Origin: an uncultured archaeon
GTDB lineage: Archaea; Iainarchaeota; Iainarchaeia; Iainarchaeales; CSSED10-239
DNA: 21,949 nt
Direction of reading: 5' to 3'
Assembly: GCA_964463155.1 (NCBI GenBank)
Contig: CAYXAY010000010.1
Coordinates: forward strand, 1 to 21,949
Shown here: piece by piece, positions 1 through 21,539 of the stretch
How positions within the stretch are numbered: position 1 is the first letter of the stretch
Layout: every line of letters begins with the position of its first letter
Position numbers and translations under genes: made by a program
The notes under the pieces: model-generated
What the model was told of the DNA's origin: nothing
Database searches by the model: none
What the model saw: only the letters and a program-made list of their open reading frames with translations

Positions 1-302
1 AGCTTTTCTGTTCTTTTGTAGATTCTCTCTGTTTTCTTGTCTATTCCCTGAACAACAAGCTTTACTTTTTCTAGGTCTTTTGCAAGACTGTCGCTTTTCT
101 GGTGAGAGACATGAAGAGTAGATATCCTTGAGAACTGGATGTCAAGCTTATTGTATTTTGCCTCAATGTCTGATAGCCTGTCATCAGTAGCATCTATTCT
201 CTCCTTAAACTTGTTTGCTACAAATCTAATAAAAAACACAAAAATAATTAATAAGAACAGAGAATTAACCAAAAGAATAAACAACAGTTCTGTATAGGTC
301 AT
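1..302 (-). CDS. Small single-pass membrane plus coiled-coil protein, paralog of 305..637. Its 3' end runs off the left window edge (partial). Not in the supplied ORF track.
   Basis: ATG at 302..300 on the minus strand, preceded by GAGGT five nt upstream and lying 2 nt after the stop of 305..637. My hand translation is open to the window edge: MTYTELLFILLVNSLFLLIIFVFFIRFVANKFKERIDATDDRLSDIEAKYNKLDIQFSRISTLHVSHQKSDSLAKDLEKVKLVVQGIDKKTERIYKRTEKL. It aligns with the 305..637 product: both start MT, then a hydrophobic helix, and share a KDLEKVK.V.QGIDKKTE.I.KRTEKL tail. Nucleotides 1..100 are visibly similar to 321..420. Confidence 0.6.
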   Translation of the reverse strand, partial: MTYTELLFILLVNSLFLLIIFVFFIRFVANKFKERIDATDDRLSDIEAKYNKLDIQFSRISTLHVSHQKSDSLAKDLEKVKLVVQGIDKKTERIYKRTEK

Positions 303-304
303 TT

Positions 305-637
305 TTACCTCTTATTATATAGTTTTTCTGTTCTTTTAAATATCTTTTCTGTTTTCTTGTCTATGCCTTGGATAACGAACTTTACCTTCTCTAGGTCCTT
401 TGAAAGACTGCTTTGATGATTTGTTGTCTTGTCTGAAACCCTAGAAAAATTGCAATCCATCTTTTCTATCTTGTTTTCAACAAACTTACAACGCTCTTCA
501 AGGTTTTTTATCTTGTCGTGATTGTCCTCTATTTGTTCATTAAATCTTTCAGAAACATGTCTTATAATAAATATCACAATTATTATTGTAATTATGAAAT
601 TAATAAGTAATATTAGTATTAAATCTCCACCTGTCAA
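305..637 (-). CDS. Small (110 aa) single-pass membrane protein with a charged helical, probably coiled-coil, C-terminal part. Function unknown.
   Basis: ORF track. N-terminal hydrophobic helix LILILLINFIITIIIVIFII, followed by R and a K/E-rich helical segment. The start is TTG at 637, one nt after the TAA of the giant gene, suggesting translational coupling. A paralog lies immediately downstream. Confidence 0.6.
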   Translation of the reverse strand: MTGGDLILILLINFIITIIIVIFIIRHVSERFNEQIEDNHDKIKNLEERCKFVENKIEKMDCNFSRVSDKTTNHQSSLSKDLEKVKFVIQGIDKKTEKIFKRTEKLYNKR

Positions 638-638
638 A

Positions 639-9600: not shown

Positions 9601-11267
9601 GTTGCTGCTGTTGAATAGGTTGTCATTATTCTCGGGTCCATTAGTTGGGACGATGCGGTTTCTGTTGCTGTGAATTCTTTGTAAGCATTAATTATACCAA
9701 ATCGCAAATATGAAGTGTTAAATCTGTTGTCATCAGTGTTTAAATATTGACCATTACTGTCTGCTACTTTAAAAGTGAATTTTGGAGTCTCATTACTATA
9801 GAACACATTTTTTGTTGGGTTCATTACAAAATGATAAAGATTTGGATTACTTCTGATCCAAAGATTTGTGTCATAAAAAGTTTCAACACTGACGTCATTC
9901 TTTGCAAGTTTTTGTATTCTTCCTGTTGAATAAACTGGATAGATGTATCCGTTTTCCTCTGAATCAACCCACAAGTCGATAGGGCTTGCTTGAACTGAAC
10001 CTGTGCCGTATGCTGCTGTGCTTGCGGGAAGCCAAGATCTCCAGTTTACCCAGCCTATTGTTCCATCTGATTTTTTTATTTGAATTATTGGTCCGCCATT
10101 TATTCCTGCACCGCCAAGAGTTGGAGACTGGACAGCAATATAACAATTTACTGAATCGCACATTATCTTATTGTATTGTCCATAAACATAATGGTCGTCT
10201 ATTCTTTGACTTCTCCATACTAACACTCCTGTAGCAGAATCTAAAGCAAAAGCATAACCGCCAAAAAACGGACCAAGGACTGTGTTGTTAAGCCCTTTTG
10301 CAACAAACACTCTTGAATTATCACAAGCTATTCCGTTTGCTGATTGAGTGACAGAATCATCTGGATCTGAATTCCAAAGAGTTGCGCCAGTTGTGTAATC
10401 ATAAGCTAGAATATTTCCGTCAGCATAAGCAACAAAAACCCTTGTATTATCGGGGCTTATACAAATGTCGTTAGCAATTGATGCTCTTGCTGTGGGCGCG
10501 AATGCAGAAACTAGAGACGGTGTTGTTGTTAGATTTTGATATTTTCTTGGAGCTGTGCTTGCTGCATAACCAATAAATGCAAAACCACTTGAAATCGCAA
10601 TAGTTTGCGCATTGGCTGCTGCAGTAGTAAACGCGGTTGTTCCTGTACAATTGGACATTAATGTTCTTCTAAGGTTGTTTGATGTTGCTGCATAAGTTGT
10701 ATAAATAAATGTTCCGTCTGTTGCTATGCCATTGCCTGTGATTGCTACACCAATATTTACATTACAATCTCTTGCACCAGTTGACATATTGAATTTTTCA
10801 ATACCCCCTGTTGTTGTTGTTGATGTTGAAATTACATAACAAGAGGTGCCATCACAAAAAATCTTATTTTTAGAAGTTGCATAATCACCGCCAGCATTCC
10901 AATACATTGTTGCAGAAATATTGTTTGCTACAGAAAAGTATTGTTTTCCAGGGGACAATCTAAAATCATAAGGAACGGTCCAATTAAATGTAAAATTACC
11001 ATCTGCATTTGTTGTAACTAATCTTGGAAACCCCCATTGTTCATTGTAACCATCCCACCATGCAGTATTTGGTTCTAAATTGTTTTGTAAAACTAAGGTT
11101 GTGCTTGGAGAAAACCCTGTTCCTGTGATTACTACGGTGTCACCTATATGGGTTTCGTTTTTATCAATAGAAAGATTTCCTGCAAAAACAAAATTTGAAA
11201 AAAATATAAAAAATAAAACCCCAGTTATAATTTTATAAAATAAATTTAGACTAATTTTTGAATGCAT
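639..11267 (-). CDS. Giant (about 3540 aa) secreted cell-surface protein with a C-terminal membrane anchor (adhesin or S-layer-like fibre).
   Basis: Uninterrupted ORF 639..11303. I prefer the ATG at 11267, which gives MHSKISLNLFYKIITGVLFFIFFSNFVFA, a canonical signal peptide, over the upstream TTG at 11303. Domain order by eye: Ig-like, beta-propeller repeats, long unassigned W/Y/F/N-rich region, Ig-like sandwiches, heptad stalk, CARDB/NEW3-like sandwiches, TM helix plus SRRRKK. N-x-S/T sequons are very frequent throughout. Confidence 0.9.
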   Translation of the reverse strand: MHSKISLNLFYKIITGVLFFIFFSNFVFAGNLSIDKNETHIGDTVVITGTGFSPSTTLVLQNNLEPNTAWWDGYNEQWGFPRLVTTNADGNFTFNWTVPYDFRLSPGKQYFSVANNISATMYWNAGGDYATSKNKIFCDGTSCYVISTSTTTTGGIEKFNMSTGARDCNVNIGVAITGNGIATDGTFIYTTYAATSNNLRRTLMSNCTGTTAFTTAAANAQTIAISSGFAFIGYAASTAPRKYQNLTTTPSLVSAFAPTARASIANDICISPDNTRVFVAYADGNILAYDYTTGATLWNSDPDDSVTQSANGIACDNSRVFVAKGLNNTVLGPFFGGYAFALDSATGVLVWRSQRIDDHYVYGQYNKIMCDSVNCYIAVQSPTLGGAGINGGPIIQIKKSDGTIGWVNWRSWLPASTAAYGTGSVQASPIDLWVDSEENGYIYPVYSTGRIQKLAKNDVSVETFYDTNLWIRSNPNLYHFVMNPTKNVFYSNETPKFTFKVADSNGQYLNTDDNRFNTSYLRFGIINAYKEFTATETASSQLMDPRIMTTYSTAATLPNPTPFNNLKFMFDEFDSGIFCQTATYPDKLFGWHINNRYCLYENMPVSTNLLHTQNGVKLASIANYFLVNPKSWSDYPITKTYGEDKWAWISSHNPTNNQILGYATRFGKNNNLWSNQLGQSTVFANDAAKNSIQDFFDASIDSWNESYFLTKPLGAGTDGNRHWNYIDEDTKKIAHPIIVSQGQNQSGSFVIGTNIYSNRIDFIATEPGIISRTNEPFWFDVNFTNGIKSNCSDLIVTDHTNTPIGLFQLDSEVCAPDNNYTLFIQDNFSLSQTKQYRLYYNSLTAAISPTGQTDLIVTFVSGTCGAGTDIIDINSTNWYKWSQPGVGATASNQFAFNFGGYAATWFNHATTRYSLNIGYLNSQSTGTGLGLTTNTTGAAQATFASRCYQRSYNRDKIFTRIDMNTGNFTVSPHSPTPGNPNATSPQTRIIMTRWYFFNNTGRIRMMSKLNSPLPIMTTGISQNYPPYYFIAVFALIPQGTATVANNNYVDWSGRKELMDAFIPAVYSPDKKTATLTASPLPLQFTIDYNNTFSNVSSAIGKTGKGCTVHKVWPYFSWRPNSPTDTTNAATFATAYTTDFISCDSNLSSVIPDVGNLGYVNAFPKESIYRTAHNRYVDPNAIAKFYLKPNLYIPDNRENRWMPPLSLSSQYNTTAKLSTFILDVCPTEEYGYKGYDDFLMDLENLISNSSTRKVETSRNNIPCATSVVIFSTSVGSIGRYLLFQRDVNVVVAENAKPERPYPSNLYINNILNINGVLDYTETQRGAQFYGKWFFTSSSDPMVISGYATTGAEQLSGFTRYAWAPSFAYNKKAYSETKIWNKEDSNLTYLQSPCNWNIGANPFGDLDLGPGWIKNFSTTQQGTICPRREDNKEQYSSFRPSVASLYPTSGSLSTAIENVIDGRPNKVTTLPDLGIDAALYTRHNSLWDYKHYTDYTQIIDSHDQLNEGTKHKNIQPWQCDFSRFDSRSFCLVPATTSTLIFTFFAGALTASQPWSAYYQSNREYNRLRNYLHNVWFNTAAMQPTNDFMTEILINPMLSGSEFTFDTLYTSNNPDDYNQLMSRVFPRLQDALYQNQFLLRDWKNTAFMILSGGDSREYLRGNTIRVNGFMMKNSDNLANAPIIVQVFKNSAPTVPLTTFQTTTDANGNFIYDYNIPTTAQAGLYFFKATYNNGEITGTTSFKISSLAINLSLNQTAFVAGNQVIVNATVTDAIIGSLITNAILSLRLIGPSGNVLLTTPMTNNNNGTYTHNFILDSNTTNGTYVLEIIAMTSNNTGTIIGSFVVSSAVSEILITNNHSFSDANTTTITQNITLQNVIANNLSNYIVSAEVSEGIDRTQPVTVLLNNSLLTSTTNYLDLNSSNYLIHTNSQNKPIIYIKQNFVTNESKALKIVGTNKYFKDIQTDYNSANNYSSELAGYCLVLLAPASQSDCNYANSYLTSINSYYSQAQTATTAGRYYDLKILTQNTLQQYLIRLNSLRSIATNQARCQIFVPGTWSLNSTVSLTALMIGPSNTPVTSLSPIVKLYDYDHNLLNNYNLTEFGGGWYYKSFTAPSTGGGYNLKIDQNIGTNRFLCAASFDVNQATSSVIGGGGGGLTTDQNQTLYMIYFLALDINSMINSINGTVNTINSTVNNINSTVNTINTNVNVINTIVSSIDSNVNYIKTNMATSANISALNTNIQSILNYSMEINSQVHSSSNTLSQLQASLLDINSTINSIRTTAIDINRTINTCESSPQASICGKLNGLTTNLSDMNAVLNNINSTTQTINSTNNIISQNIIDLNNVTNNIYSTVTTINSTSNLLNSKLSLIDGNIQSLKTNISSLEDLLSCSTSPENSVCDRLINLNIVVSNINQAIIDQNALLQQILAINQDINQNISTINTTLSTMNNTLNTINSNVASINLTILNIDSNVSYIKGNMASTGDIASLDSTLQSILNYSQDINSTVTSSEAQLHLISSTLTNIDNNVNYINTATSNIQEIINTCSSAPAGGVCNQLASLYNDLQDMNNTLLGMSSTINNIDSTTLTITQTVNDLNDTAGNIYSTVTDINTTSKFILAKVTGIETDTQTIQTEILNIQTSLNCANNSLQHSVCNNLSNISSLISDVNVGTQLSLLGITNFLSTLEYNQGSIQLSLSGIISDLNNLSCADENVLPLCANINEITLLINSLFSSINSLDSGIVDLNATMNQVSNTINNIDSTTTASLTSLTDLTKNVNYLATDVTQIKSEILTTQTMVTATNNNLVNLLNNLSQNLTDVNLSNNLSLLNILTSLSTIQSNQLTIDGNLSLIYNNLNCAGNPDSNICISLQTIIGSTNNLGASVLDLNQAMNVIGNNVLDINSISTNTFLTISDLNNSTSTITSSIQGINTNLTTTSNNIKTINQRLTDINSKVTDINKTVTDTNTTIGQTNNAVSNISSSVSSISGGIIDINNTLKDINASQSSISAALLQMQALLADINDTTNNIYINELSKFTVVLSDFDRLAPGSIYRAKLWAFDHNGSPRNADAVPTITLYDPSRNLVVNNVPMTLSETGIYTYNFTSTTGQIAGVWEAIATTTVKGVTTKPSDFWELTGNPPEVKIIAMTDVTVPTITANVLITNEGTTTQEYQYEYCIVFDQTNQCGGNDDIDYSSGAKLISPGQSWTTNLTLLTQNVGTYWFKVKVYYGIEMSAASKMFVAINQDTNQGGGGSGGGGGSASGGSSGGITGFINMPIDGGQISLFEYPSEMVVKQGDIEFYVLKIKNTGDDVLKDLEITLRNIPKEWYTIEIDKTNLLPYEEANVIIKLRIPEDAKIGDTLISFIIKTKGGLVSVDSVSRILEKSLAEIKFDDIRVSKLYINSSGEIECILQNTSNDEQNISVSLLAPKDWSIDIDEYKFTFKKGETKKIIFKVMTSYRSGVQNLVLVVKNNKGTNFSGTTEDKLYKEILVVVNTRENTRGFIMYHPTNIYIGASVVILVLFIVGYVAGSRRRKKYKPLGYNNSIFDRIVGLR
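714..773 (-). other. C-terminal transmembrane anchor followed by a basic cytoplasmic tail.
   Basis: IYIGASVVILVLFIVGYVAG, then SRRRKKYKPLGYNNSIFDRIVGLR. I saw no LPXTG or PGF motif before it. Confidence 0.8.
800..1490 (-). other. Two tandem CARDB/NEW3-like (COG1470-type) beta-sandwich domains next to the membrane anchor.
   Basis: GDIEFYVLKIKNTGDDVLKDLEITLRNIPKEWYTIEIDKTNLLPYEEANVIIKLRIPEDAKIGDTLISFIIKT and GEIECILQNTSNDEQNISVSLLAPKDWSIDIDEYKFTFKKGETKKIIFKVMTSYRSGVQNLVLVV. Each shows the typical pattern v-N-t-G-...-l-...-v-p-.-g-W-...-l-.-p-G-e-...-v-.-v-.-v-P. Confidence 0.5.
1497..1553 (-). other. Gly/Ser-rich flexible linker (GGGGSGGGGGSASGGSSGG).
   Basis: Read directly from codons 1497..1553. 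This is locally the most GC-rich stretch I noticed in the window. Confidence 0.85.
1890..2189 (-). other. Ig-like domain immediately after the stalk.
   Basis: FTVVLSDFDRLAPGSIYRAKLWAFDHNGSPRNADAVPTITLYDPSRNLVVNNVPMTLSETGIYTYNFTSTTGQIAGVWEAIATTTV. Confidence 0.45.
2190..4800 (-). repeat. About 870-aa Asn/Ile/Ser/Thr/Leu-rich heptad-repeat (coiled-coil-like) stalk with a large internal duplication and six Cys-loop interruptions.
   Basis: Heptads such as INSTVNT INSTVNN INSTVNT INTNVNV INTIVSS. Anchor motif IDSNVNYIKTNMA (I codon 4632..4634) recurs as IDSNVSYIKGNMA (I codon 3876..3878), an offset of 756 nt or 252 aa. The following about 250 aa align by eye. Cys pairs lie at 4377..4406, 4083..4112, 3621..3650, 3324..3356, 3135..3164 and 2691..2720. 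Confidence 0.75.
4615..4765 (-). repeat. Imperfect 21-nt (one heptad) tandem repeats within coding sequence.
   Basis: The minus strand reads ATC AAT GGA ACA GTA AAC ACA / ATT AAC AGC ACA GTT AAT AAC / ATC AAT AGC ACA GTA AAC ACC / ATT AAC ACA AAT GTA AAT GTA / ATC AAC ACA ATT GTA AGC AGC / ATC GAT TCC AAT GTT AAT TAT. Confidence 0.75.
4815..4832 (-). other. Hexaglycine hinge at the N-terminal boundary of the stalk.
   Basis: Codons ccc acc gcc tcc ccc tcc on the plus strand encode GGGGGG on the minus strand (VIGGGGGGLTT). Confidence 0.85.
4850..5140 (-). other. Ig-like domain immediately before the stalk, homologous to the one after the stalk.
   Basis: SPIVKLYDYDHNLLNNYNLTEFGGGWYYKSFTAPSTGGGYNLKI parallels PTITLYDPSRNLVVNNVPMTLSETGIYTYNFTSTTGQIAGVWEAI at 1890..2189. 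Confidence 0.45.
5740..6310 (-). other. Two tandem Ig-like or carboxypeptidase-regulatory-like beta-sandwich domains.
   Basis: PIIVQVFKNS...TTDANGNFIYDYNIPTTAQAGLYFFKATYNNGEITGTTSFKISS, then NQVIVNATVTD...LRLIGPSGNVLLTTPMTNNNNGTYTHNFILDSNTTNGTYVLEIIA. These have the alternating beta-strand pattern typical of such folds. Confidence 0.5.
8745..8945 (-). other. Possible DUF2341-like beta-sandwich segment inside the unassigned central region.
   Basis: FWFDVNFTNGIKSNCSDLIVTDHTNTPIGLFQLDSEVCAPDNNYTLFIQDNFSLSQTKQYRLYYNS resembles my memory of the DUF2341 pattern (D-i-r-f-t-D ... l-p-y-e-i-e ... v-W-V ... i-y-l-Y-Y-G-N). Memory-based only. Confidence 0.25.
9900..10880 (-). other. Beta-propeller region (PQQ/BamB-like blade repeats). 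Boundaries approximate.
   Basis: Recurrent blade-like motifs: IFCDGTSCYVIS, IATDGTFIYTTY, ISPDNTRVFVAYADGNILAYDYTTGATLWNS, IACDNSRVFVAKG...GGYAFALDSATGVLVWRS, IMCDSVNCYIAV...IIQIKKSDGTIGW, GYIYPVYSTGRIQKL. Confidence 0.55.
11178..11267 (-). other. Signal peptide of the giant protein.
   Basis: MHSK n-region, hydrophobic core ITGVLFFIFFSNFVF, and an A-G boundary (VFA/GNLS). Confidence 0.7.
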
Positions 11268-11309
11268 ATTATTCCAAATTAAAGATTTAAATTTTAATAC
11301 CAATAATTG

Positions 11310-11424: not shown

Positions 11425-12096
11425 ATGAACTCTATTGAAAAAATATATAACCGATTGTTAACAGATTATGGGAGACAAGGCTGGTGGCCATTATCTGATA
11501 TTGGTTATCATCCTGGAAAATATTATTTGATTAAAACACATGCACAAATATTTGAAATATATGCTGGGGCAATATTAACACAAAGTGCTTCTTGGAAAAA
11601 TGTCGAAAAAGCAATCTATAATCTTAAAAAAAATGATTTGCTTAATCCTAAAGCAATAATTGAAAAAGACCAAGAAACAATAAAACATGCAATTAAATCT
11701 GTTGGCTATTATAATCAAAAATATCAAAGACTCGTTGATATTTCTAAATTTTATTTATCTTTAAAAGATAGAATGCCTACAAGATCTGAACTTCTTTCTG
11801 TTAAAGGAATTGGAAAAGAAACAGCGGATTCTATTCTTTTATATGGTCATAGAGAACCAATCTTTGTTGTTGATGCTTATACAATAAGAATACTATTAAA
11901 TCTTAAAATTATCAAGAAAAATGCAAAATACGAAGAAATACAGAAATTATTTGTGGATAACCTTCCAAGAGATTTCAAGATTTATCAAGAATATCATGCT
12001 CTTTTAGTAGAACATGCAAAAAGATATTATACTAAACGCACAATTAAAGAAAAAAAGAATAAAAAGATAATTGATCCCTTAATTGAAATTATCTAA
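11425..12096 (+). CDS. HhH-GPD superfamily DNA glycosylase, endonuclease III-related (COG2231-like). It has no C-terminal Fe-S cysteine cluster.
   Basis: Helix-hairpin-helix LLSVKGIGKETADSILLYG followed by PIFVVDAYTIRIL (Asp codon 11872..11874). WW motif YGRQGWWP near the N-terminus. The product contains no cysteine at all. Confidence 0.8.
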   Translation: MNSIEKIYNRLLTDYGRQGWWPLSDIGYHPGKYYLIKTHAQIFEIYAGAILTQSASWKNVEKAIYNLKKNDLLNPKAIIEKDQETIKHAIKSVGYYNQKYQRLVDISKFYLSLKDRMPTRSELLSVKGIGKETADSILLYGHREPIFVVDAYTIRILLNLKIIKKNAKYEEIQKLFVDNLPRDFKIYQEYHALLVEHAKRYYTKRTIKEKKNKKIIDPLIEII

Positions 12097-15000
12097 CTTT
12101 ATTATAAAATTCATTAAAATTATCTAATAATTTGGTGTGATAATTAGGATCTTCTGCCCATGTTCTTGCAACCTCTCTAACAGTCAGTCCTTTATAATGC
12201 TTGGTTCTTACTAAATTAACTAATGTTGCTTCAAAACCAGCATGTAATGTTGGATAAGTACAAAAGTCGCTATTTCTTACTTTGTAACCGCCACATGCAC
12301 AACCAGCATAAGACTTAATTCCTGTCGGATTATTATTTAAAACTAATGCTCCATTTTTATAATTCCCTGATAACACATTATACATTGATTTTTCATTTTT
12401 AAATTTAGCTAATACAAATATTGGGTCTACTCCATAAATAGCACATAAATTATATAATGTAGGAATTGCGGTCGTAAATTTTTCATGTGCGCGATATCTA
12501 TTTGGAATAGGTTGAGAAATTTTTATAATATCTTGATAAGACAGAGATGGTGTGCTTAGAACAATAACACTATCTAGATTTCGTCTAATATTTCTTGCTG
12601 TTGCTAAATTAAGATTTCCAGAACTTAATTTTCTAAGTGATTCTGCATTTGTTGTATAACAATTATCTGTTCCAGTTTTTAAACTTGCAATCACCTGTAG
12701 AGGGGCTTTTTGTTGTGGAGATCTTTGTTGATTGTTTTGTGACCTTTTAGTTTTAAGTGTCATCACATTAGGCAATTTTCCTAAAACAAATTGCTCTGTA
12801 TTTTTTTCCTGTAAATCTAATAATTGAGAATAACTTGTTTTTGAATTATAGATATAAACATAAGTTCCGTTTTGTACATTGTTAAACAAATTAATAATAT
12901 CATTATTTAACATTCTTATACATCCATGAGATTTTTGTTGGCCCATTGAATTTTCATAATTTGTTCCATGTATGTATGTTCCTCTGTAAATTGTATTTCT
13001 ATTCCCACTATCACAACCAACACCTAAATTCTCTTTTTCTAAACCGTCAAGAACAAGTTTTCGTGTAACGATTTTTGCAGTTCCTGAATTTAAACTTGCA
13101 AATACTGGAAAACCGTTATTTGTTTCAGGCCCATTTGCCCCAATTACTTGCAATGGAACTGCATTTTGACCGGATTTTTGTATAACTCTAAATAATCCCA
13201 AAGGTGTTTTTAAACTACCAGTTTCACATCCAAATCCATTAACTCCCGTAGATATTGGATATTCAGAAATAATTTGTGTTTGATTATTTAATTTTTTTAC
13301 TAAAAATATTCTTTTATATTTTCCTAATATTATTATCATTGGATCTTGAGAAACTAATCTAATTCTTTCATTAATTTCTGACATTGAATTAGTATAATTG
13401 GTTTTATAATATATATTAAATTCTTTTTGTAAGATCCTATCATAAACTTCATTTAATTCTCCATACATATTGTCATTTAATACCGTTCTTTGAGTTGAAG
13501 AAGCCAGTTCAAAAGAATTATAATAATCTAAAATATAATCTGGCAAAATTGTATTATTTACCTCCATAGACCCAAAATAAATAGATCGCTCTCTTGCTTT
13601 TGCTCTTAATTTTTGATATAGATTATTAGAAATAATAACTTCTTTTATTTGTCCATCTTCATAATATCCACAAGCATTCTTTCCTCTTGCTGTTGTTTTT
13701 AAGAAAACATCTAATTTTTCTATTTTTAATGTGCTTCCCCAAGAGTGTATAATATAATGATTAGAACCAATTTTTCCTAGATAAACAACAACATGACTAT
13801 ATTCTTTATTCCAATAACTTGTGTTGTTATGTTTTATACCAAGAATAGAACCCGGAACTAAAGAATCATAATAACTTTTATTTAAAGTTCCAACTGTTGT
13901 TTTCCAGATACTTTTGTTATTTGGTTGCATTGCTAAATCCCACGCATTTGCAGAATCAAATCTATATCCAAAAAAATAATTATTGAAATTTTTAATAAAT
14001 GCAGAACAGGAATTAACTCTTGGATTAGACCAATAGCTTACACAGTTTGTGGGGGTGTTTGGAACACAAGTTGTATTAAATCTGGAATAAAATCCGCCGT
14101 TTGGTGTTTGCGCGGTTTTTGAAACTTGACAAATTAAAGATTCGTTACAATTAAACAAATCTATAAATTCTTTATTTAGATTTGGTTCAGCCTTTAATAA
14201 TTCCTTGTATGCAAGCCCATAATTTCTAAAAACATCTAAATTACGAATTTCAATTTGATTTTGTAATTGAGTATTTACTAAATTCATTTTTTCATATAAT
14301 TCGTTTCCATTTTCTGTGTAAATCGCAAGGCTTGTGTTTACCTGAGAACCTGTATTTTGTGTTAATTGATTAGATAAAGAATTACTTTCATTAATTACTT
14401 TATTAAATTCATTATATGCTATAGATTTAATAGAATCCAATTCTACAGCTATATTTTTCCAAACACTAAAACTATCTTGCGAAACTAAAAAACAAAATTC
14501 TCTATTTGATATTCCATTAATTAATTCTGATAAATTAAAATTTATTTCCGGAACAATAATTTTGTAAAGATAAAGATTATCAACTACAGAATAATTTAAA
14601 TGCTCTAAATTAAATAACAATAAATTTGTTGATTCAATAATTAACGGATAATCTCTAAATATGGGTTTTGGGGGATAAATAATTAAGGTGTCTCTTGTTT
14701 GATCTTCTATATAAATTACAGAAATATTTTGCAAATCTATAGGCACATATTCTTTTCCGTTATAATTTTTTATTGTAATTTCGGTGTCTTGTTCTTTAGT
14801 TATTATCACCGGGCTAGTATAGTTGATTGAAATATTTGAATTTAAAACAAAAAGTTTTCCATTTTGCAAATCATTGGTTGTATCTATTTGATTAATATTT
14901 TTAGATTTTATTGAATCTGTTTGACTTAAAAAATCAGAATTAAAATTATAGCTAATTGGATTTATTGATTTATAAAATAATGGATTATATGAATAATATC

Positions 15001-17347
15001 TATTAGATTCTAAATAGCTTAAATATAGAGGTGTACTTGGTTCTTCTAATTTAATTATTGCATTTCGCCAATTTATATTTATTTCTTCAATGTTTACAAC
15101 TACGGTTTTTGGGCTAATAATGTCTTCTGTATTTGTAAGGGTCAATTCCCAATAATTTCTTAAAAACCTATTGTATTGATTTTTTAATATGTGTTTGGTT
15201 TCTCCGGTTATATCTAAAAATGGTTTAAGATTATATATAAAATAATTTAAAGATTCTGAAAAATAAATATTGGAATAACCTCGTGTCTTGTTTTCTAAAC
15301 TAAATAACAATTTAGAATAAATGTCGTTAGTTGATCTTGGAATTTTAAAATAATTAATTGAAGAAATATATTTCTCTACAGTTATTTGATAGTGTGTGTG
15401 ATAATCTGTATATTTATAATACTCTGTAGGATTAACTAATATTTCTTGCATTATTCTTTGAAATTCTTGTTCGCTTACTTCTGGTTCATTATTTACTAAA
15501 TCAAGTATTGTTAGTTTTTGATATTCTCTTGGAATTTGATTTAAAACAGCTATTGAATGATTAAAAGAATCATCAATTGAGGCATTTGACGAATTTGCAG
15601 TATATTCATTCAAATCGTGCTCTATATACGTACCAACTTTAGAGATTAAATTATTTCTTGCTTTTTTGTATTTTATATCTCCAAGTTGAATAACATTATT
15701 ACTATTAATATTATCTAACTTTTTAGAAATTGCAATCCTAAACTGATCTTGATCTATATAATATTCCCCATAATCAAATAAATCAGAAGTTATTTTTAGA
15801 TCATCCCATTCAAAATACATTCTATCTAATCCAAATATTTGCAAAGCTTCATTTGTAAATCCAGATATTCGCGAGCCATCTGGTAAAAGACAAACATTTT
15901 CTTTTGCTTTTAAATGTTCTGTAATTGACTTTTTATCTTTTTCAAAAATGGATTTACCACAAGCTGAAAAACTATTTTCATTAAGTCCATAATCTTTTAA
16001 TCGACAATAAGGACAATAGAATTCTATAATGTTTTTATTAATTTGAAATAAAGCATATTTATTAAAATTATTATAATCCATTTGCAAAAGATTTGTACTG
16101 TAAATTCCAGTTACTTTCTGATGTACATCTAATTCAATTATTTGTATAGAAATATTCTCTATGTTTGGTTTAATGTTTAATATTAACTTGTTATTTGTTA
16201 ATGATGGTCGATTAAATTTAAGATATCTGGGGCTACTATTTAATAATTCAATTGTTGGATTATTACTTAAAACAAACAGATTCATATTTGGTAAAATAGG
16301 AGATTGAGCACGATCTATAGCAACATATATTTCTTTGGTTGTGCTTGAAAGGATCAGATTTAAATCAACTAATTTGTCTTGTCTGATTTCTTCTAAAGAA
16401 TTGTTTATAACATGTGTTCTCCCTTGATTATACACATAAATTCTTTTTCTAATATTTCTATTGTGAGCCAAAGAATAACTAGAAATATTTAAATATTTAT
16501 AATTTATTTGAGAATTTAATACAAACGAATTATTTAACTCATTTTCTGAGAAATTAGAGAAAATATTAGAAAATTCGTCTGTCTCTATAGATTCTGGTAT
16601 TTGTTGATTTTCTAGATTAATGTCTAAATCTCCTTCATTACTTGTATTTGGAAGAGGAAATATTATATCTGATTGTAAATCCGTTACCTCTAATCTAAAT
16701 TCAAAGATAGATTTTGTAGTTTCTAAATTTTCAGAATCAAACATAAATTGTTTTTTTAAATATCTATTTCCAAATATGTCTTTAGTGTATTTTTCTTGAT
16801 TACTAGAGAAATTGCTCTTGTCAACTAAAGATGCTTTATTTTCTCTATTAAATATTGTTTTACCAAGATCATACCTTGCAATAAATATTGTAATATTTAC
16901 ATCAGATGCAATATTTGAAATTGCACTAAATCCTTCCTGTTGAGAACAAACTGAACAATTTAAATCTAATATAATATAAGATTCATTATCTTCTGTTAAA
17001 TTAAAATAAAAAACACCATAATTATTTGAATATTTTTGATCTATCTGGAAAGAATTAAAAAATTGGCTTCTTGAAGAAGAGAGATTTTGTTTAATTAAAT
17101 CTAGATCATACATTATTTTGCTTGCATCTTGTATTGTTCTGTTTTCTGAAATGTCGTTGTTAATTGCATAAAATACAACAATTTCTTTATTTAATAGAGA
17201 CGGTCCAGTATCGGCGAATCTCACTTCTAAATATCTGTTCTCAATAACACCAGTGTCTGTTATTATTAATCCCTTTTCTAAAGCTAACAATGATGGCAAA
17301 GAAAATATCATAAATGTAATAAAAAAGATTATTTGTTTTTGATTCAT
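12089..17347 (-). CDS. Large (1752 aa) secreted multidomain peptidoglycan-active protein: orphan N-terminal region, then NlpC/P60-like, YkuD L,D-transpeptidase and GH73 glucosaminidase-like modules.
   Basis: ATG at 17347. Signal peptide MNQKQIIFFITFMIFSLPSLLA. Catalytic-motif matches are listed in the sub-features. The stop at 12089..12091 overlaps the convergent glycosylase gene by 8 nt. Confidence 0.9.
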   Translation of the reverse strand: MNQKQIIFFITFMIFSLPSLLALEKGLIITDTGVIENRYLEVRFADTGPSLLNKEIVVFYAINNDISENRTIQDASKIMYDLDLIKQNLSSSRSQFFNSFQIDQKYSNNYGVFYFNLTEDNESYIILDLNCSVCSQQEGFSAISNIASDVNITIFIARYDLGKTIFNRENKASLVDKSNFSSNQEKYTKDIFGNRYLKKQFMFDSENLETTKSIFEFRLEVTDLQSDIIFPLPNTSNEGDLDINLENQQIPESIETDEFSNIFSNFSENELNNSFVLNSQINYKYLNISSYSLAHNRNIRKRIYVYNQGRTHVINNSLEEIRQDKLVDLNLILSSTTKEIYVAIDRAQSPILPNMNLFVLSNNPTIELLNSSPRYLKFNRPSLTNNKLILNIKPNIENISIQIIELDVHQKVTGIYSTNLLQMDYNNFNKYALFQINKNIIEFYCPYCRLKDYGLNENSFSACGKSIFEKDKKSITEHLKAKENVCLLPDGSRISGFTNEALQIFGLDRMYFEWDDLKITSDLFDYGEYYIDQDQFRIAISKKLDNINSNNVIQLGDIKYKKARNNLISKVGTYIEHDLNEYTANSSNASIDDSFNHSIAVLNQIPREYQKLTILDLVNNEPEVSEQEFQRIMQEILVNPTEYYKYTDYHTHYQITVEKYISSINYFKIPRSTNDIYSKLLFSLENKTRGYSNIYFSESLNYFIYNLKPFLDITGETKHILKNQYNRFLRNYWELTLTNTEDIISPKTVVVNIEEININWRNAIIKLEEPSTPLYLSYLESNRYYSYNPLFYKSINPISYNFNSDFLSQTDSIKSKNINQIDTTNDLQNGKLFVLNSNISINYTSPVIITKEQDTEITIKNYNGKEYVPIDLQNISVIYIEDQTRDTLIIYPPKPIFRDYPLIIESTNLLLFNLEHLNYSVVDNLYLYKIIVPEINFNLSELINGISNREFCFLVSQDSFSVWKNIAVELDSIKSIAYNEFNKVINESNSLSNQLTQNTGSQVNTSLAIYTENGNELYEKMNLVNTQLQNQIEIRNLDVFRNYGLAYKELLKAEPNLNKEFIDLFNCNESLICQVSKTAQTPNGGFYSRFNTTCVPNTPTNCVSYWSNPRVNSCSAFIKNFNNYFFGYRFDSANAWDLAMQPNNKSIWKTTVGTLNKSYYDSLVPGSILGIKHNNTSYWNKEYSHVVVYLGKIGSNHYIIHSWGSTLKIEKLDVFLKTTARGKNACGYYEDGQIKEVIISNNLYQKLRAKARERSIYFGSMEVNNTILPDYILDYYNSFELASSTQRTVLNDNMYGELNEVYDRILQKEFNIYYKTNYTNSMSEINERIRLVSQDPMIIILGKYKRIFLVKKLNNQTQIISEYPISTGVNGFGCETGSLKTPLGLFRVIQKSGQNAVPLQVIGANGPETNNGFPVFASLNSGTAKIVTRKLVLDGLEKENLGVGCDSGNRNTIYRGTYIHGTNYENSMGQQKSHGCIRMLNNDIINLFNNVQNGTYVYIYNSKTSYSQLLDLQEKNTEQFVLGKLPNVMTLKTKRSQNNQQRSPQQKAPLQVIASLKTGTDNCYTTNAESLRKLSSGNLNLATARNIRRNLDSVIVLSTPSLSYQDIIKISQPIPNRYRAHEKFTTAIPTLYNLCAIYGVDPIFVLAKFKNEKSMYNVLSGNYKNGALVLNNNPTGIKSYAGCACGGYKVRNSDFCTYPTLHAGFEATLVNLVRTKHYKGLTVREVARTWAEDPNYHTKLLDNFNEFYNKVR
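12095..12460 (-). other. GH73 (mannosyl-glycoprotein endo-beta-N-acetylglucosaminidase-like) domain.
   Basis: YGVDPIFVLAKFKNEKSMY (candidate catalytic Glu codon 12392..12394), NNPTGIK, FCTYPTLHAGFEATLVNLV and WAEDPNYHTKLLDNF. These follow the family pattern AQ-ES-G, N-N-l-F-G-i-K, F-r-.-Y-.-s-.-.-.-S-.-.-D-y, Y-A-t-D-p-.-Y. Confidence 0.7.
12845..13345 (-). other. YkuD-type L,D-transpeptidase catalytic domain.
   Basis: YPISTGVNGFGCETGSLKTPLGLFRV ... YIHGTNYENSMGQQKSHGCIRMLNNDIINLFN. The hallmark is H-G-x(n)-S-H-G-C-I-R-M, with the Cys codon at 12920..12922. Confidence 0.85.
13700..14060 (-). other. NlpC/P60-like (papain-fold cysteine peptidase) module.
   Basis: Candidate nucleophile in NSCSAFIKNF (Cys codon 14006..14008). 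PGSILGIK...YSHVVVYLGKIGSNHYIIHSWG supplies His codons 13793..13795 and 13745..13747. This follows the C...pGd-l......H-V-.-i-Y-l-G.....i-H order of NlpC/P60 enzymes. Confidence 0.6.
17282..17347 (-). other. Signal peptide of the 1752-aa protein.
   Basis: MNQKQ n-region, hydrophobic core IIFFITFMIFSLPSLL, and A-L-E at the boundary. Confidence 0.7.
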
Positions 17348-17439
17348 AATTGTTCACTAGTTTAGATAATATAACACATTATATCAAAAGATATAAAAAT
17401 CTGTGCCATAGTAATCAAAAATTGTAGAAGAAACAAGCA

Positions 17440-17475
17440 TTTCCGGTTATTTCCAGTAAGTTTCGGTAAGTTTCG
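17440..17475 (+). promoter_or_regulatory. Helically phased array of four TTTC(C/G) motifs upstream of a TATA-like box. Copy 2 (18873..18898) has three.
   Basis: TTTCC at 17440 and 17450, TTTCG at 17461 and 17471, giving spacings of 10, 11 and 10 nt. The last motif lies 14 nt before TTTAAATA in both copies. Confidence 0.4.
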
Positions 17476-17484
17476 CTAAAAGTA

Positions 17485-17492
17485 TTTAAATA
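17485..17492 (+). promoter_or_regulatory. TATA-box-like TTTAAATA with a purine-rich (BRE-like) AAAAG upstream. The equivalent in copy 2 is at 18908..18915.
   Basis: Identical in both leader copies. It lies 96 nt upstream of the start codon, implying a leader of roughly 70 nt if it is used as an archaeal promoter. Confidence 0.35.
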
Positions 17493-17522
17493 GAAAGAAT
17501 TATAAGTTTTGTATAAGTAAAC

Positions 17523-17547
17523 GATTTAATGAAAATGTCATTAAATC
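17523..17547 (+). promoter_or_regulatory. Perfect 10-bp-stem, 5-nt-loop inverted repeat GATTTAATGA-AAATG-TCATTAAATC in the leader. Copy 2 is at 18946..18970.
   Basis: The arms are exact reverse complements and identical in both copies. The repeat is located between the TATA-like box and the SD. Confidence 0.5.
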
Positions 17548-17587
17548 CCCTTTAGGAATAAAACTAAAAATTTAAGGAGGAAAAAGA

Positions 17588-18859
17588 ATGAACGAAAAAA
17601 AAATAATTAACTATATAGTTACAATATTTGCATTGACAATCTTTGCACTAGCGATTGCACCAAACATTTTTGCAGAACACTACTCTATTGACGAAGGCGG
17701 TTTAAAAAAAATTACTCTTGGTAGATCAAATGCTTCCATTACAATTTCTGGGATCTATAAAGAATTAATTGATTTAAGCAATAATGAAATACTTAGCAAA
17801 ACTCCAATTACTGCGACTTATGAAAATCCAATTTATTTAAATCCAAATAAAGAATATAAAATAAATGTTTATTTCACATCATCTGCTGATATTTCAAAAG
17901 ATGTAACAATCGGGTCATATCTTGGCATACTTGCAAGAAATAAAGATGGATATTTAGATCCTTCCACTTATGAAGATAGAAAAGAAACTCTAACAAATAT
18001 AAAAATTAGTAAAATTAATTTTTACGGTACAGAAAAATATAAATATGTTTATTCATATATAATTGATAAAACAATATTTGATAAAATAGGAACAATATCA
18101 AATAGCTATTCTTCAAAACCAGATGGCCACGATATTTCTTTAACACAATGGTTAAGATTTGATAGACATAATCAAACACAAAATGACACGGTTGGTTTTA
18201 ATTCAAATTCTATACCAATAATTATAACAACAGAAACACCGACAAACAATAATGCAATAGCATATAGACTAAATATACCTTGTGCAATAGACAGAACACA
18301 AATTGTTGTGCCTGTACATTTTGATCAAGATTATTCTGGACAATATAAATCCAGATGTAATTCTGGTGCTTATTTTAATTCTGAAACTAATACCTATCAT
18401 TTAAAGAAAAATGAAGGATATTATTTAGATTTAGAGTTGTTGCCTACAACGAATACAAAAACAGTTAATCTTTCAGAAATAGAATTAGTAGTTCTTGAGA
18501 TTTTTACAGACGGTCAAGAACAAGCCTGTTTCACAAGAAAATTAACTAAAAGCTCAACAGATTCTTTATTTCATGGGAAAATCGGTTATATAAAAGGCAA
18601 TGATTCAGAAGAATATACACCCGAAAATATGACTGGATTTATTAATTCTTGTGGAGTAGATAAATTACTTAAATTTAAAACCACAATCAAATTAAATGAT
18701 GGAACAGAAATTCAGGGAAATAATATTGGAGATATACAGCACTTGAAAATTGATTCAGATAATTTCAATATGGTTGCAGAAAATGCCAGAGCAAAAAATC
18801 AAATACAAGCAAACTCTAATGCACAAAATTCTAAACCAAATAAAAATCAAAAATTGTAG
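17588..18859 (+). CDS. Secreted protein of unknown function (423 aa) with a C-terminal four-Cys domain shared with 19011..20591.
   Basis: AAGGAGG at 17574..17580, 7 nt before the ATG. Signal peptide MNEKKIINYIVTIFALTIFALAIAPNIFA. Asn/Lys-rich low-complexity tail. Confidence 0.85.
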   Translation: MNEKKIINYIVTIFALTIFALAIAPNIFAEHYSIDEGGLKKITLGRSNASITISGIYKELIDLSNNEILSKTPITATYENPIYLNPNKEYKINVYFTSSADISKDVTIGSYLGILARNKDGYLDPSTYEDRKETLTNIKISKINFYGTEKYKYVYSYIIDKTIFDKIGTISNSYSSKPDGHDISLTQWLRFDRHNQTQNDTVGFNSNSIPIIITTETPTNNNAIAYRLNIPCAIDRTQIVVPVHFDQDYSGQYKSRCNSGAYFNSETNTYHLKKNEGYYLDLELLPTTNTKTVNLSEIELVVLEIFTDGQEQACFTRKLTKSSTDSLFHGKIGYIKGNDSEEYTPENMTGFINSCGVDKLLKFKTTIKLNDGTEIQGNNIGDIQHLKIDSDNFNMVAENARAKNQIQANSNAQNSKPNKNQKL

Positions 18860-19022
18860 AAGAAACAAGCATTTTCCTGTTATTTCCAGTAAGTTTCGCG
18901 AAAAGTATTTAAATAGAAAGAATTATAAGGTTTGTATAAGTAAACGATTTAATGAAAATGTCATTAAATCCCCTTTAGGAATAAAACTAAAAATTTAAGG
19001 AGAAAAGAAAATGAATGAAAAA
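18845..19022 (+). repeat. Leader repeat copy 2.
   Basis: See copy 1. It overlaps the last 15 nt of CDS 17588..18859 and runs through ATGAATGAAAAA of CDS 19011..20591. Confidence 0.9.
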
Positions 19023-20591
19023 TTAACAAAATCAATTAACATTGGTGTTATTGCTATTGTTCTTGTATTTTTAGCATTAATAGTGACACCAAAGATTTCT
19101 GCAACCGAAACAGGAAATGTACCGGCAAATAATGCGGAACAAATAACTAGTGTTTTTCCAACAACCGGTGTTTGGGTTGTTGTTACTGAATCTGGAAAAC
19201 CATTAAATAACAGAAGTGTAAAGTTCATTGAACCAAACAACGGTGAACCAGAATATGTGCCTAGAGAATACAAAACCAATGAATTGGGAGTAATATATTT
19301 GAGATTAGGCACTAATCTGGAATTCAAAATAGCAGACACAAAAACAGGCATTGCTAAAATTATTAACACTGGTTTTGTAGGACCAATACTAATAAATTTA
19401 GATGTAACTAACTACGGAACTCAAAATAACGACTATCCGGAAGGAATTTTTGATTTAAAAGTAAGTGTAAAAGATAAGCACACTAATAAACCAATATCAT
19501 CTGCAAGAGTGTCAATACAAAGTGAAGATTACACTTCAACTCAAAGAACATTTTTTACAAACGATGAGGGCGTTACAATTATTGAATATTTACCAACCGG
19601 TATATATTCTTTCAGAATTTCAGCAACTAATTATGTTGAACAAAATGTAAAAAATTATTTCTTTGGTTCAACCAGCAATTTAAATATTGACTTGCGTACT
19701 GCAAATTTTGAGCAAAACCCATTAGATGGTCGCACTAATCATTTAATCTCTTTTGAAAAATGTGCAGTAGACAAATTAAAAACAATTATTTCAAAAGAAG
19801 CAGTCACATCAAGAAGTGAAGTTAAACACTACAATGTTTGCGAAGCTAAAGGATTTATTGACTACCACAAAAAAATATATTATATGTCTAAAGATGAAAG
19901 CTATATTTCTAGGGTTACTTTAAACAATTTAGATTTAACTAAATATACACAAAAACAAACACCAAAAGCAAAATTAATATTTTCAACAGACTCTGGAAAT
20001 AAATGTTATGAAAAAGAATTAATGTTATTAAAATCTGTGCCAGAGCAAGGGGCTTATAAATTTATAACAACATTAATTAAAGAAGATCTTCTTGAAACAC
20101 AAAAATCAGACATTGGTTATCTTAGTGCAAATTGTGGAATAGGAAAGATAATTAAACTATCTGTTGAAATATATGATGTAGACAATAACCCTATCTTTTC
20201 TATAGAGGATGTTTCTTCAATAACAAGAATAATGATTTTCTCAAATAAAGAAGAAGATATGGCTATAGCAAATCAAGAAAATAACCAGAGAGTGACTAGC
20301 GATATAATTCAAAGAGAAAGAACTGAAATTTCAAATATTAAAGAACATCAAATTTCTAGAGAATCTGAAATCTTTGTAAATATTGGTAATGAAAAAAGAA
20401 AAGTCGTTTCAATAGAAAATATTTTAGAAGAAAGAAATATCAATCCAAACAAAATCATCAGTGACATAAAACTAGAAGAGACAGAATATGTTTTTGATGT
20501 TAAAGAAAAAAAGAGACTTTTGGGGTTCATTCCTTTTGGAGAAAAGATAGTTGAAAAAAGAATATCTGCCATAAGAGAAATTAGAGAGTAA
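19011..20591 (+). CDS. Secreted protein (526 aa): carboxypeptidase-regulatory-like beta-sandwiches, the shared four-Cys domain and a charged C-terminal extension.
   Basis: GGAG at 18999..19002. Signal peptide MNEKLTKSINIGVIAIVLVFLALIVTPKISA. DLKVSVKDKHTNKPISSARVSIQSEDYTSTQRTFFTNDEGVTIIEYLPTGIYSFRISATNYVEQ (about 19441..19680) fits the CarboxypepD_reg-like pattern. Confidence 0.85.
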   Translation: MNEKLTKSINIGVIAIVLVFLALIVTPKISATETGNVPANNAEQITSVFPTTGVWVVVTESGKPLNNRSVKFIEPNNGEPEYVPREYKTNELGVIYLRLGTNLEFKIADTKTGIAKIINTGFVGPILINLDVTNYGTQNNDYPEGIFDLKVSVKDKHTNKPISSARVSIQSEDYTSTQRTFFTNDEGVTIIEYLPTGIYSFRISATNYVEQNVKNYFFGSTSNLNIDLRTANFEQNPLDGRTNHLISFEKCAVDKLKTIISKEAVTSRSEVKHYNVCEAKGFIDYHKKIYYMSKDESYISRVTLNNLDLTKYTQKQTPKAKLIFSTDSGNKCYEKELMLLKSVPEQGAYKFITTLIKEDLLETQKSDIGYLSANCGIGKIIKLSVEIYDVDNNPIFSIEDVSSITRIMIFSNKEEDMAIANQENNQRVTSDIIQRERTEISNIKEHQISRESEIFVNIGNEKRKVVSIENILEERNINPNKIISDIKLEETEYVFDVKEKKRLLGFIPFGEKIVEKRISAIREIRE

Positions 20592-20626
20592 TTTCTCTTC
20601 TTTCTTTATTTTTTTAAAAAAAGTAA
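20592..20626 (+). terminator. T-rich tract after the 526-aa gene; possible oligo-T terminator.
   Basis: TAATTTCTCTTCTTTCTTTATTTTTTT directly follows the stop codon. There is no strong GC hairpin. Confidence 0.3.
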
Positions 20627-20627
20627 C

Positions 20628-20635
20628 TTTAAATA
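20628..20635 (+). promoter_or_regulatory. TATA-box-like TTTAAATA preceded by an A-rich BRE-like tract, upstream of the wHTH gene.
   Basis: AAAAAAAGTAACTTTAAATATATAA. The box centre lies about 36 nt before the ATG at 20667, and no SD lies between, consistent with a short leader. Confidence 0.35.
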
Positions 20636-20666
20636 TATAATTATAATATAACATTATTGAACAATT

Positions 20667-21539
20667 ATGATTAAGAAACAAATATTGATACTCTTTGTTT
20701 TTCTAGCAATCATTAATTATAATTATGCCCACAGTGTTGTTTCTCAAGACACAGAAATATTTGCAGATAAGTTTGATAGTTATAAGGTTTCCGAAAAATT
20801 AACAATTACAGATATTAATTCTCAAAAATTAGAATTTCCTATTGTTCCAAGTTATGACCTTGTTGTTAAGGTTAACAATCAGAGATATTCAAATATAACC
20901 TACACTAGTGATTTATTAATTATTAATTTAAATAATATTCCAGAAACACTTAATCTGGAAATAATTTATCTTACGGATTATTATACAAACAAAAATAACG
21001 GGATTTGGAACATCAAATATAAATCCAGACATTCAGAAAGTCTAAATACTTTAAAAATAACTCTACCAAGAAATGCAGAAATAACAGAAACACTAATCTC
21101 TTCTCCTGTTCAAGTAATCAATGAACAAATTGTTATTTCTTTTAAAGATATCACAGAAATAAATATTAATTATTATTTAAGAAATGTTGAATATAAGAAC
21201 AATTATTATTATTATTTATTAATAATTCCATTTGTTTTTGTTGGTGGGTATCTATTAATTAAAAATAAACCGAAAATTAAAAAAGAAATAAAAACTATAG
21301 AAAAGGATTTACTTTTTGGATTAAATGAGAATGAACAAAAGATTATGAATATAATTATTGAAAATGAAGGACAATCTCAAAAAATGATAACTGCCAAAAG
21401 TTTCTTACCTAAAGGAACAGTTTCAAGAAATATACAAAAACTTGTAGATAAAGGATATATCCATATAAAAAAATATGGAGTAAGCAATAAACTTTTCCTT
21501 GGAGAAGTATTTAAAAAAGGTGAAAAAAATGCTAAATAA
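20667..21539 (+). CDS. Membrane-tethered winged-helix (MarR/TrmB-like) transcriptional regulator with an extracytoplasmic N-terminal domain.
   Basis: N-terminal signal or anchor MIKKQILILFVFLAIINYNYA. About 160-aa outside domain. TM YYYYLLIIPFVFVGGYLLI (about 21200..21260). Then KIKKEIK and LNENEQKIMNIIIENEGQSQKMITAKSFLPKGTVSRNIQKLVDKGYIHIKKYG (about 21310..21480), a typical wHTH. Confidence 0.75.
   Translation: MIKKQILILFVFLAIINYNYAHSVVSQDTEIFADKFDSYKVSEKLTITDINSQKLEFPIVPSYDLVVKVNNQRYSNITYTSDLLIINLNNIPETLNLEIIYLTDYYTNKNNGIWNIKYKSRHSESLNTLKITLPRNAEITETLISSPVQVINEQIVISFKDITEININYYLRNVEYKNNYYYYLLIIPFVFVGGYLLIKNKPKIKKEIKTIEKDLLFGLNENEQKIMNIIIENEGQSQKMITAKSFLPKGTVSRNIQKLVDKGYIHIKKYGVSNKLFLGEVFKKGEKNAK

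Follow-up and report, generated by a model that had tools for sequence, protein, structure and literature searches.

In the vsp, vlp and vsa genes of Mycoplasma, divergent coding regions follow a 5' non-coding region and a signal peptide that are conserved; these genes occur in many copies per genome and are switched by a dedicated device, either site-specific inversion or a hypermutable tract. [quoted passage not shown] Here we analyse a stretch of 21,949 nucleotides (the window) from an uncultured archaeon of the Iainarchaeota (assembly GCA_964463155.1, contig CAYXAY010000010.1, positions 1 to 21,949 of the forward strand), in which a leader of about 190 nucleotides (nt) stands as a direct repeat in front of two consecutive genes for secreted proteins, gene 1 and gene 2. 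In our interpretation, to which we give a probability of roughly two in three, the leader serves one gene slot as its promoter and 5' untranslated region (5' UTR), and recombination stacked two versions of the slot gene, truncating gene 1.

Direct repeat, truncated gene and related loci

A reading made from the letters of the window alone (the sequence-only reading) had described a near-perfect duplication of the leader, the copies differing by one 10-nt unit and a few substitutions. Both statements held, and the repeat proved slightly wider than described. Copy 1 spans 17408..17606 and copy 2 18840..19029, both on the plus strand, and 178 of 189 aligned bases match, with 11 mismatches and 11 gap columns that consist of one 10-nt unit, GTAAGTTTCG, and a 1-nt indel. 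The longest identical run is 72 nt; a 34-nt core of the leader occurs exactly twice in the window and not once in 100 shuffles. Copy 1 comprises a spacer tail, phased units, a B recognition element (BRE) with TATA box, the 5' UTR and then the ~6 codons that open gene 1 (17588..18859, plus strand, 423 aa). Copy 2 has the same parts with one 10-nt unit fewer, starts inside the last codons of gene 1 and precedes gene 2 (19011..20591, plus strand, 526 aa).

Gene 1 lacks its 3' part. All 20 homologues of gene 1 run ~100 residues past ...AQNSKPNK, through a linker and a C-terminal domain of ~80 aa, whereas gene 1 is cut off after ...SKPNK and ends as NQKL-stop (alignment A4). Its DNA homology to the orthologue in L002, one of the related loci described below, ends at ...CCAAATAAA, and the bases that follow, AATCAAAAATTGTAGAAGAAACAAGC..., match the spacer upstream of leader copy 1. 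The sequence AATCAAAAATTGTAG begins both leader copies, and in copy 2 gene 1 takes its final four codons and its stop from it (18845-18859), bases that are spacer sequence. The window holds no second coding sequence for the C-terminal domain besides that of gene 2. From the end of homology, the spacer match and the sole C-terminal domain in gene 2 we conclude that gene 1 is truncated at 18844/18845 and reads into spacer. The junction at 18844..18845, which joins the body of gene 1 to spacer plus leader and which is defined by the alignments with L002 and with copy 1, has at most 1-3 nt of microhomology, pointing to illegitimate recombination. The start of copy 1 had been taken for the scar of a gene end that was propagated together with the leader. 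The polarity is the reverse: the spacer before copy 1 adjoins a divergent YkuD gene and no gene precedes it on its own strand, NQKL-stop is spacer into which gene 1 reads, and no gene end was propagated.

We collected related loci from the contigs of slot-protein homologues and from contigs found by scanning for the invariant 25-mer AAGTTTCNCNAAAAGTATTTAAATA. This gave 12 distinct loci, labelled L001-L020, which, where named, come from metagenome-assembled genomes (MAGs) of an 'archaeon' or 'uncultured archaeon'. The gene order was the same in 12 of 12: a YkuD gene on the minus strand, an intergenic region of ~350 nt with one leader, a small open reading frame (ORF), one slot gene (331-615 aa), a gene for a winged-helix (wHTH) protein and a DUF333 gene. 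The one leader of each of L001-L020 is an orthologue of leader copy 1. Only the window has a second leader and a second slot gene, and only there is the small ORF absent. In L020 the wHTH and YkuD genes look split into several ORFs (6185-7047 and 1-4648), which may reflect pseudogenes or assembly errors. An exact 20-mer from the hairpin region had no match in the GTDB genomes searched, which indicates that the source genome and near-identical relatives are not among the GTDB species representatives.

The direct repeat flanks a gene and begins with an apparent gene end, as would be expected if a gene end and the leader travelled together as a mobile or dispersed cassette that has more copies in the genome, and the sequence-only reading had anticipated such copies. 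However, the apparent gene end is spacer, and the leader is always syntenic, with one copy in each of the 12 loci; the 25-mer occurs once per genome in three GTDB MAGs and is absent from viral contigs. Many leader-preceded genes in one genome were found neither in the three MAGs nor in the 12 loci, the source genome being seen through one contig only. The cassette is thus largely refuted, and we find it barely credible. Repeat analysis and Pfam scans yielded no terminal inverted repeats, target duplication, integrase, transposase, attC-like site or dispersed copies that would mark an integron cassette, a miniature inverted-repeat transposable element or an insertion sequence unit, and no new mobile element is revealed.

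The small ORF bears on why the two leader copies are so alike. In 12 of 12 related loci it encodes a hydrophobic peptide of 39-41 aa (MKKLxCPxxKxRQ... followed by a transmembrane helix) and lies between the hairpin of the leader and the slot gene (L001 9870-9989, L002 5870-5989). The slot gene's Shine-Dalgarno site overlaps the stop codon of this translationally coupled ORF. The counterparts in the window, 17552-17580 and 18975-19002, carry one common deletion of ~120-130 nt that left the last six codons of the small ORF, and tblastn found no copy of it elsewhere in the window. The last-codon remnant, GAATAAAACTAAAAATTTAA, is fused to the Shine-Dalgarno sequence AAGGAGG at 17556..17580 (plus strand; 18979-19002 in copy 2). 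At the deletion junction (~17554-17556) CCCCTTTA is joined to GGAATAAAAC, and in relatives the segment missing here is flanked by the six bases TAAGAA. Over its spacer part (17408-17442) the leader is 33/35 (94%) identical between the copies and about 50-70% identical to relatives. A common deletion and an unconserved spacer in both copies argue for a recent common origin or for homogenisation of the two leaders. Strong constraint or gene conversion had been proposed in the sequence-only reading. The leader does hold conserved, probably functional elements and conversion is possible, but the near-identity of the copies, as the product of recent common origin or gene conversion, requires no exceptional constraint. 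That the non-coding sequence seemed far better conserved than the coding sequence is mainly because the two coding regions are not orthologues but different versions of the slot gene.

These versions belong to one modular family. Among 5.8 billion proteins gene 2 has one homologue (P0002, 65% identity); gene 1 has 20. In the family (alignment A4) a signal peptide is followed by N-terminal domains that are optional or alternative, a beta-sandwich whose four cysteines are invariant, a linker of low complexity and the conserved C-terminal domain, which ends ...GFIPFGEKIVEKRISAIREIKE. Gene 1 encodes a type-1 protein without any Pfam or NCBIfam match, and gene 2 a complete type-2 protein with signal peptide, CarboxypepD_reg immunoglobulin (Ig)-like, four-cysteine and C-terminal domains. 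BLASTP aligned only 146 aa of the two, with 19% identity (E 0.006). Profile comparison by hhalign demonstrated that the two types are homologous (probability 99.8%, E 1.6e-28); they are ~19-28% identical. The earlier statement that the two proteins are alignable only in their C-terminal domains does not hold: the common part is the four-cysteine beta-sandwich together with similar signal peptides, and gene 1 is without the C-terminal domain of the family. An AlphaFold model of the slot protein was of moderate quality (pLDDT 67), and Foldseek returned generic Ig/p53-like beta-sandwich matches with a template modelling (TM) score below 0.4. The C-terminal domain was considered as PepSY-like and this was dropped, there being no Pfam support even at E <= 10.

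At the DNA level gene 1 is ~85% identical to the slot gene of L002, and gene 2 ~80% to that of L001. With 85-88% identity, L002, L005 and L013 stand closer to the backbone (wHTH plus DUF333 genes) than L001 does (78%). Within one 90%-identity cluster, P0004 (L002 6001-7572, 523 aa) and P0024 (L013/L016, 332 aa) differ by the presence or absence of an N-terminal domain of ~190 aa, which indicates gain or loss of whole domains among very close relatives.

Anatomy of the leader

We derived the anatomy of the leader from an alignment of 14 orthologous leader sequences, across which the phased units and the BRE/TATA element are invariant or nearly so. In alignment A3 the string AAGTTTC.C.AAAAGTATTTAAATA is invariant, its BRE/TATA part being AAAAGTATTTAAATA. 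Copy 1 has four units phased at 10 base pairs (bp), TTTCCGGTTA, TTTCCAGTAA, GTTTCGGTAA and GTTTCGCTAA, at 17440..17479 on the plus strand, which abut the BRE. Copy 2 has three (about 18872-18899), and the 10-nt indel between the copies therefore amounts to one unit, or one helical turn. Relatives have two to four units of the form (T/A)AGTTTC(G/A)C (TAAGTTTCRC) or degenerate TTTC, exactly 10 bp apart; every relative has at least two (T/A)AGTTTC(G/A)C units, and their position is conserved. The units are likely a binding array for a transcription factor. Their TTCCAGT resembles a half-site of an origin recognition box. A replication origin was nevertheless rejected, as neither a dyad nor an inverted pair is present, orc1/cdc6 is not encoded nearby and TTCCAGT is not conserved in relatives.

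The BRE-like sequence AAAAGTA and the TATA box TTTAAATA follow at 17478..17492 (plus strand; 18901-18915 in copy 2) and match the archaeal consensus, in which a TTTAWATA octamer has an A-rich BRE immediately upstream. Among the relatives identified by way of their proteins (L001-L006 and L018-L020) AAAAGTA-TTTAAATA does not vary, and L017 has AAAGGTACTTAAATA; L007-L016 were found by a BRE/TATA pattern search, so that their match carries no weight. A similar motif, AAAAAGTAAC-TTTAAATA, lies upstream of the wHTH gene (20618-20635). Scans for sigma-70 promoters and intrinsic terminators left the leader empty, with 10 sigma-70 sites found against 13.3 expected. The archaeal records of the relatives, the family matches of the wHTH protein and the lack of a sigma-70 site in the leader agree in indicating an archaeal host and no bacterial promoter. 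Transcription is predicted to start ~30 nt after the beginning of the TATA box, at ~17513-17516 and ~18936-18939. About 8 nt further on lies a hairpin or palindrome, GATTTAATGA-AAATG-TCATTAAATC (17523..17547, plus strand; 18946-18970 in copy 2), and directly after it a conserved TCCCCT (17546-17551 and 18969-18974, plus strand), of which TCCCC is kept in all relatives but L018 (TCTCC).

Taken as a whole, the leader appears to be a regulated archaeal promoter with a short 5' UTR that carries one 5'-proximal stem, belonging to a single-copy syntenic slot. Across genomes the leader core is slightly better conserved at the nucleotide level (92/86/86/73%) than the neighbouring wHTH gene (86/78/77/71%), and we attribute this conservation to ordinary promoter and UTR function. 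Helically phased motifs upstream of BRE/TATA and a palindrome past the predicted start recall archaeal activator and operator promoters, among them the Ptr2 sites of Methanocaldococcus, the ArnR boxes before the Sulfolobus archaellin promoter and the operators of the TrmB family. A winged-helix protein, membrane-anchored as ArnR is, is encoded in the neighbourhood of the promoter; being adjacent in every relative, it is the prime candidate for a factor that would bind the units and regulate the leader. A dimer operator fits less well than an RNA stem, as the spacing within the palindrome varies (6, 7 and 17 nt). To our knowledge the TAAGTTTCRC motif matches no described site, and both the phased-unit motif and the 5' stem are as yet undescribed. 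In ~200 kb of related DNA, paired units GTTTC-N5-GTTTC were confined to the leader, bar one isolated match in L005-L007 and L016, and the loose palindrome TAATG-N5-18-CATTA gave few scattered extra matches, none with the flanking arm bases or TCCCC.

The sequence-only reading had also proposed a structured RNA leader. On this explanation the leader would be a regulatory RNA, riboswitch-like or small, and selection on its fold would account for the near-identity of the copies. The hairpin speaks for it to some degree: a stem of 9-10 bp occupies the same place in most relatives and occurs there with three different sequences. The stem GATTTAATG(A)/(T)CATTAAATC, whose free loop measures 5-7 nt, is found in the window, L001, L002, L005, L008, L013 and L014; (TTA)TAATGTG/CACATTA(TAA), with a 13-nt loop, in L003, L009, L015 and L018-L020, several of them with one mismatch and L018 with a G-U pair; and AGGTT/AACCT in L017. 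RNAfold pairs the almost invariant TCCCC weakly with the downstream Shine-Dalgarno site, and the 89-nt UTR of the window folds with a z of about -3. However, close relatives reach only -1 to -2 and distant relatives 0 or above, and global folding of the whole leader was no better than shuffles for both copies (z -0.06 and -1.5). A permissive Rfam scan of 17000-19400 found no match (the best hit had E 6.8 and 19.3 bits, the gathering score being 49.9). The stem comparison covers few sequences, and mismatches occur in several of the stems (in the stem group labelled B, six of seven distinct sequences). MAFFT cannot register the shifted 5' arm of the distant relatives, so that the evidence on the stem is descriptive only. 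Moreover, the best-conserved block, the phased units with BRE/TATA, lies upstream of the predicted transcript, and the non-conserved spacer is equally identical between the copies. What is left of the structured leader is one local hairpin; a regulatory RNA as the cause of the near-identity seems very improbable to us, and no new RNA class is revealed.

Probable history of the tandem genes

Our preferred account, a promoter and 5' UTR of one slot behind which recombination stacked two gene versions, can be put as a single event. Donor DNA, from a sibling strain or a second copy of the chromosome, would have carried the spacer tail, the leader with the small ORF deleted and a type-2 gene. Its right end would have found its anchor through homologous recombination, either in the conserved C-terminal-domain region or downstream of it, and its left end would have been joined illegitimately inside the resident gene 1. 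Such an event would at once remove the last ~100 codons of gene 1 and let it read four codons into the imported spacer. The pathway would be homology-facilitated illegitimate recombination or an equivalent unequal crossover. A two-step variant, in which 17413-18844 is first duplicated in tandem and the gene in the second copy is then replaced, would give the same product. Sliding identity places a candidate homologous crossover approximately at 20470..20480, inside the coding region of the C-terminal domain: here the closest relative switches from L001 (85-96% over 20341-20461) to L002/L005/L013 (80-95%).

Several points weigh against this account. The arrangement is known from one assembly. 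The switch at ~20475 may just mark the end of type-specific sequence, with one other type-2 sequence to compare. The type-2 gene of L001 and gene 2 (~80%) are about as diverged as the backbones (~78%), so that the data agree with horizontal import but do not demonstrate it. The one-step model requires a donor with the same small-ORF deletion. As to the leader itself, the transcription start is a prediction from sequence, and the hairpin is energetically insignificant in the more distant relatives (z +0.3 to +0.8).

The similar divergences also suit a different history, in which genes 1 and 2 would be an old tandem pair of paralogues whose leaders are kept alike by ongoing gene conversion, the relatives having each lost one member through recombination between leaders and gene 1 having been truncated by a later deletion from linker to spacer. 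Gene 1 is about as distant from L002 (~85%), and gene 2 from L001 (~80%), as the respective backbones are (86% and 78%), which fits vertical descent of both genes. The 72-nt identical core with its clustered flanking differences resembles a conversion tract, and one member would easily be lost between direct repeats of 190 nt. Yet 0 of 12 related loci retain two genes or two leaders, and an old pair would need repeated independent losses, an extra deletion, conversion into non-functional spacer and spread of the small-ORF deletion by conversion. We consider this history unlikely.

With a single metagenome-derived contig, neither of whose two proteins was found in a second assembly, and with leader copies that differ by ~6% as strain variants do, the array could also be an assembly artefact that joined two co-occurring strains with different slot versions. 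A graph assembler, however, needs a common k-mer, and the junction has at most 1-3 nt of common sequence and lies outside any repeat that the two versions have in common. A strain bubble would normally collapse or break the contig, and serialising both branches is unexpected. An artefact is accordingly improbable in our view.

If stacking by recombination is correct, the locus comes closest to the displacement arrays. As in T6SS, Rhs and CDI arrays (PMC5361080), a conserved flank would serve as the homologous anchor and the incoming module would be joined illegitimately; the resident gene is partly displaced and left as a truncated tandem remnant, with relatives carrying different modules at the site. 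The feature that defines such arrays, an illegitimate junction that truncates a resident gene whose remnant is kept, is found here in the loss of ~100 C-terminal residues at 18844/18845. The locus differs from them in that the host is an archaeon, that the N-terminal and central region is variable and the anchor lies at the 3' end, that the remnant keeps a promoter copy and an intact 423-codon ORF, and that only one stacked example is known. Domains of toxins or immunity proteins were not detectable.

Like the vsp, vlp and vsa genes of Mycoplasma, the window has near-identical upstream sequence and first codons, with the signal peptide, before divergent tandem genes for secreted proteins. In contrast to that system, the relatives are single-copy and the tandem state is unique to this contig. 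No recombinase domain was found in the six ORFs scanned (the 3554-aa ORF was left out), and there is no hypermutable or homopolymer tract in the leader, whose sole length variation is one 10-nt unit.

Surrounding genes and meaning of the locus

The window is a complete contig and has a GC content of ~25-38%. Upstream of the repeat, a minus-strand gene at 639-11303 encodes a secreted protein of 3554 aa in which degenerate INSTVN/NxT-rich repeats fill long stretches and whose C-terminus carries a transmembrane anchor; it is probably a giant protein of the cell surface. At the contig start a direct repeat of 90 nt (1-90 and 321-410, 81% identity, spacing 320 nt) overlaps a 110-aa ORF on the minus strand (305-637) and may mark tandem small paralogous genes. 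A plus-strand HhH-GPD glycosylase gene lies between the 3554-aa gene and the YkuD gene (12089..17347, minus strand). The latter encodes a giant secreted L,D-transpeptidase of 1752 aa with a glucosaminidase part and shares its intergenic region with leader copy 1, from which it diverges. The YkuD protein is a mosaic: its first ~220-275 residues (about 16520-17347) have no counterpart in the closer relatives L001 and L002, and this part aligns with the more distant L003 from residue 17 on, at 51% identity over the whole protein. With the slot gene modular as well, both genes beside the conserved promoter region are modular and variable.

Downstream, the wHTH gene (20667..21539, plus strand), which adjoins the slot in every relative, encodes a signal/ectodomain part, a transmembrane helix and then the HTH_24/MarR/DUF7343 domain; it matches DUF7343 and the archaeal-type Sta1/Lrs14 families weakly, under curated cut-offs. 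A gene for a DUF333-Kazal protein follows it. Between gene 2 and the wHTH gene (20592-20640) a T-rich tract, TTTCTCTTCTTTCTTTATTTTTTT, is likely an archaeal terminator, and the BRE/TATA-like motif of the wHTH gene comes next, 39 nt before its ATG. The boundary between gene 1 and leader copy 2 has no comparable T-run, so that read-through from copy 1 into gene 2 is possible.

An inverted repeat of 30 nt (87%), 17330-17359 and 20655-20684, covers the start codons of the YkuD (minus) and wHTH (plus) genes and brackets the two-gene array. Both arms read TGAACAATT-ATGAWT.A.AAACAAATA. We rejected them as inversion sites, as the arms are gene starts with a similar weak Shine-Dalgarno-like context and similar first codons, and relatives have the like (AGTGAA..ATT-ATG). 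The inverted repeat is probably coincidental, arising from a common translation-start context.

The element belongs to ordinary classes, an archaeal BRE/TATA promoter with its 5' UTR and a stacked array made by recombination at a polymorphic locus, and it does not qualify as an Rfam RNA, a dispersed cassette or mobile element, or a multicopy phase-variable gene family. It is conceivable, though we are doubtful, that the leader and the C-terminal-domain/regulator region act as homology arms of a cassette-exchange locus at which versions of the secreted protein and N-terminal modules of the YkuD protein are swapped, stacked arrays being intermediates or reservoirs and the units, the wHTH protein and the hairpin a dedicated control circuit. 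If true, this would be an archaeal counterpart of the T6SS/Rhs/CDI orphan arrays in a lineage that looks host-dependent.

Our analysis yields a model of the locus in which a conserved promoter and 5' UTR lie between two hypervariable, mosaic genes for secreted proteins, with a membrane regulator adjacent. It offers a well-defined archaeal promoter with candidate regulatory motifs and documents mosaic, module-swapping evolution of secreted proteins in uncultured low-GC archaea. The boundary at the end of gene 1 is likely a junction of illegitimate recombination, a process that is little documented in archaea.

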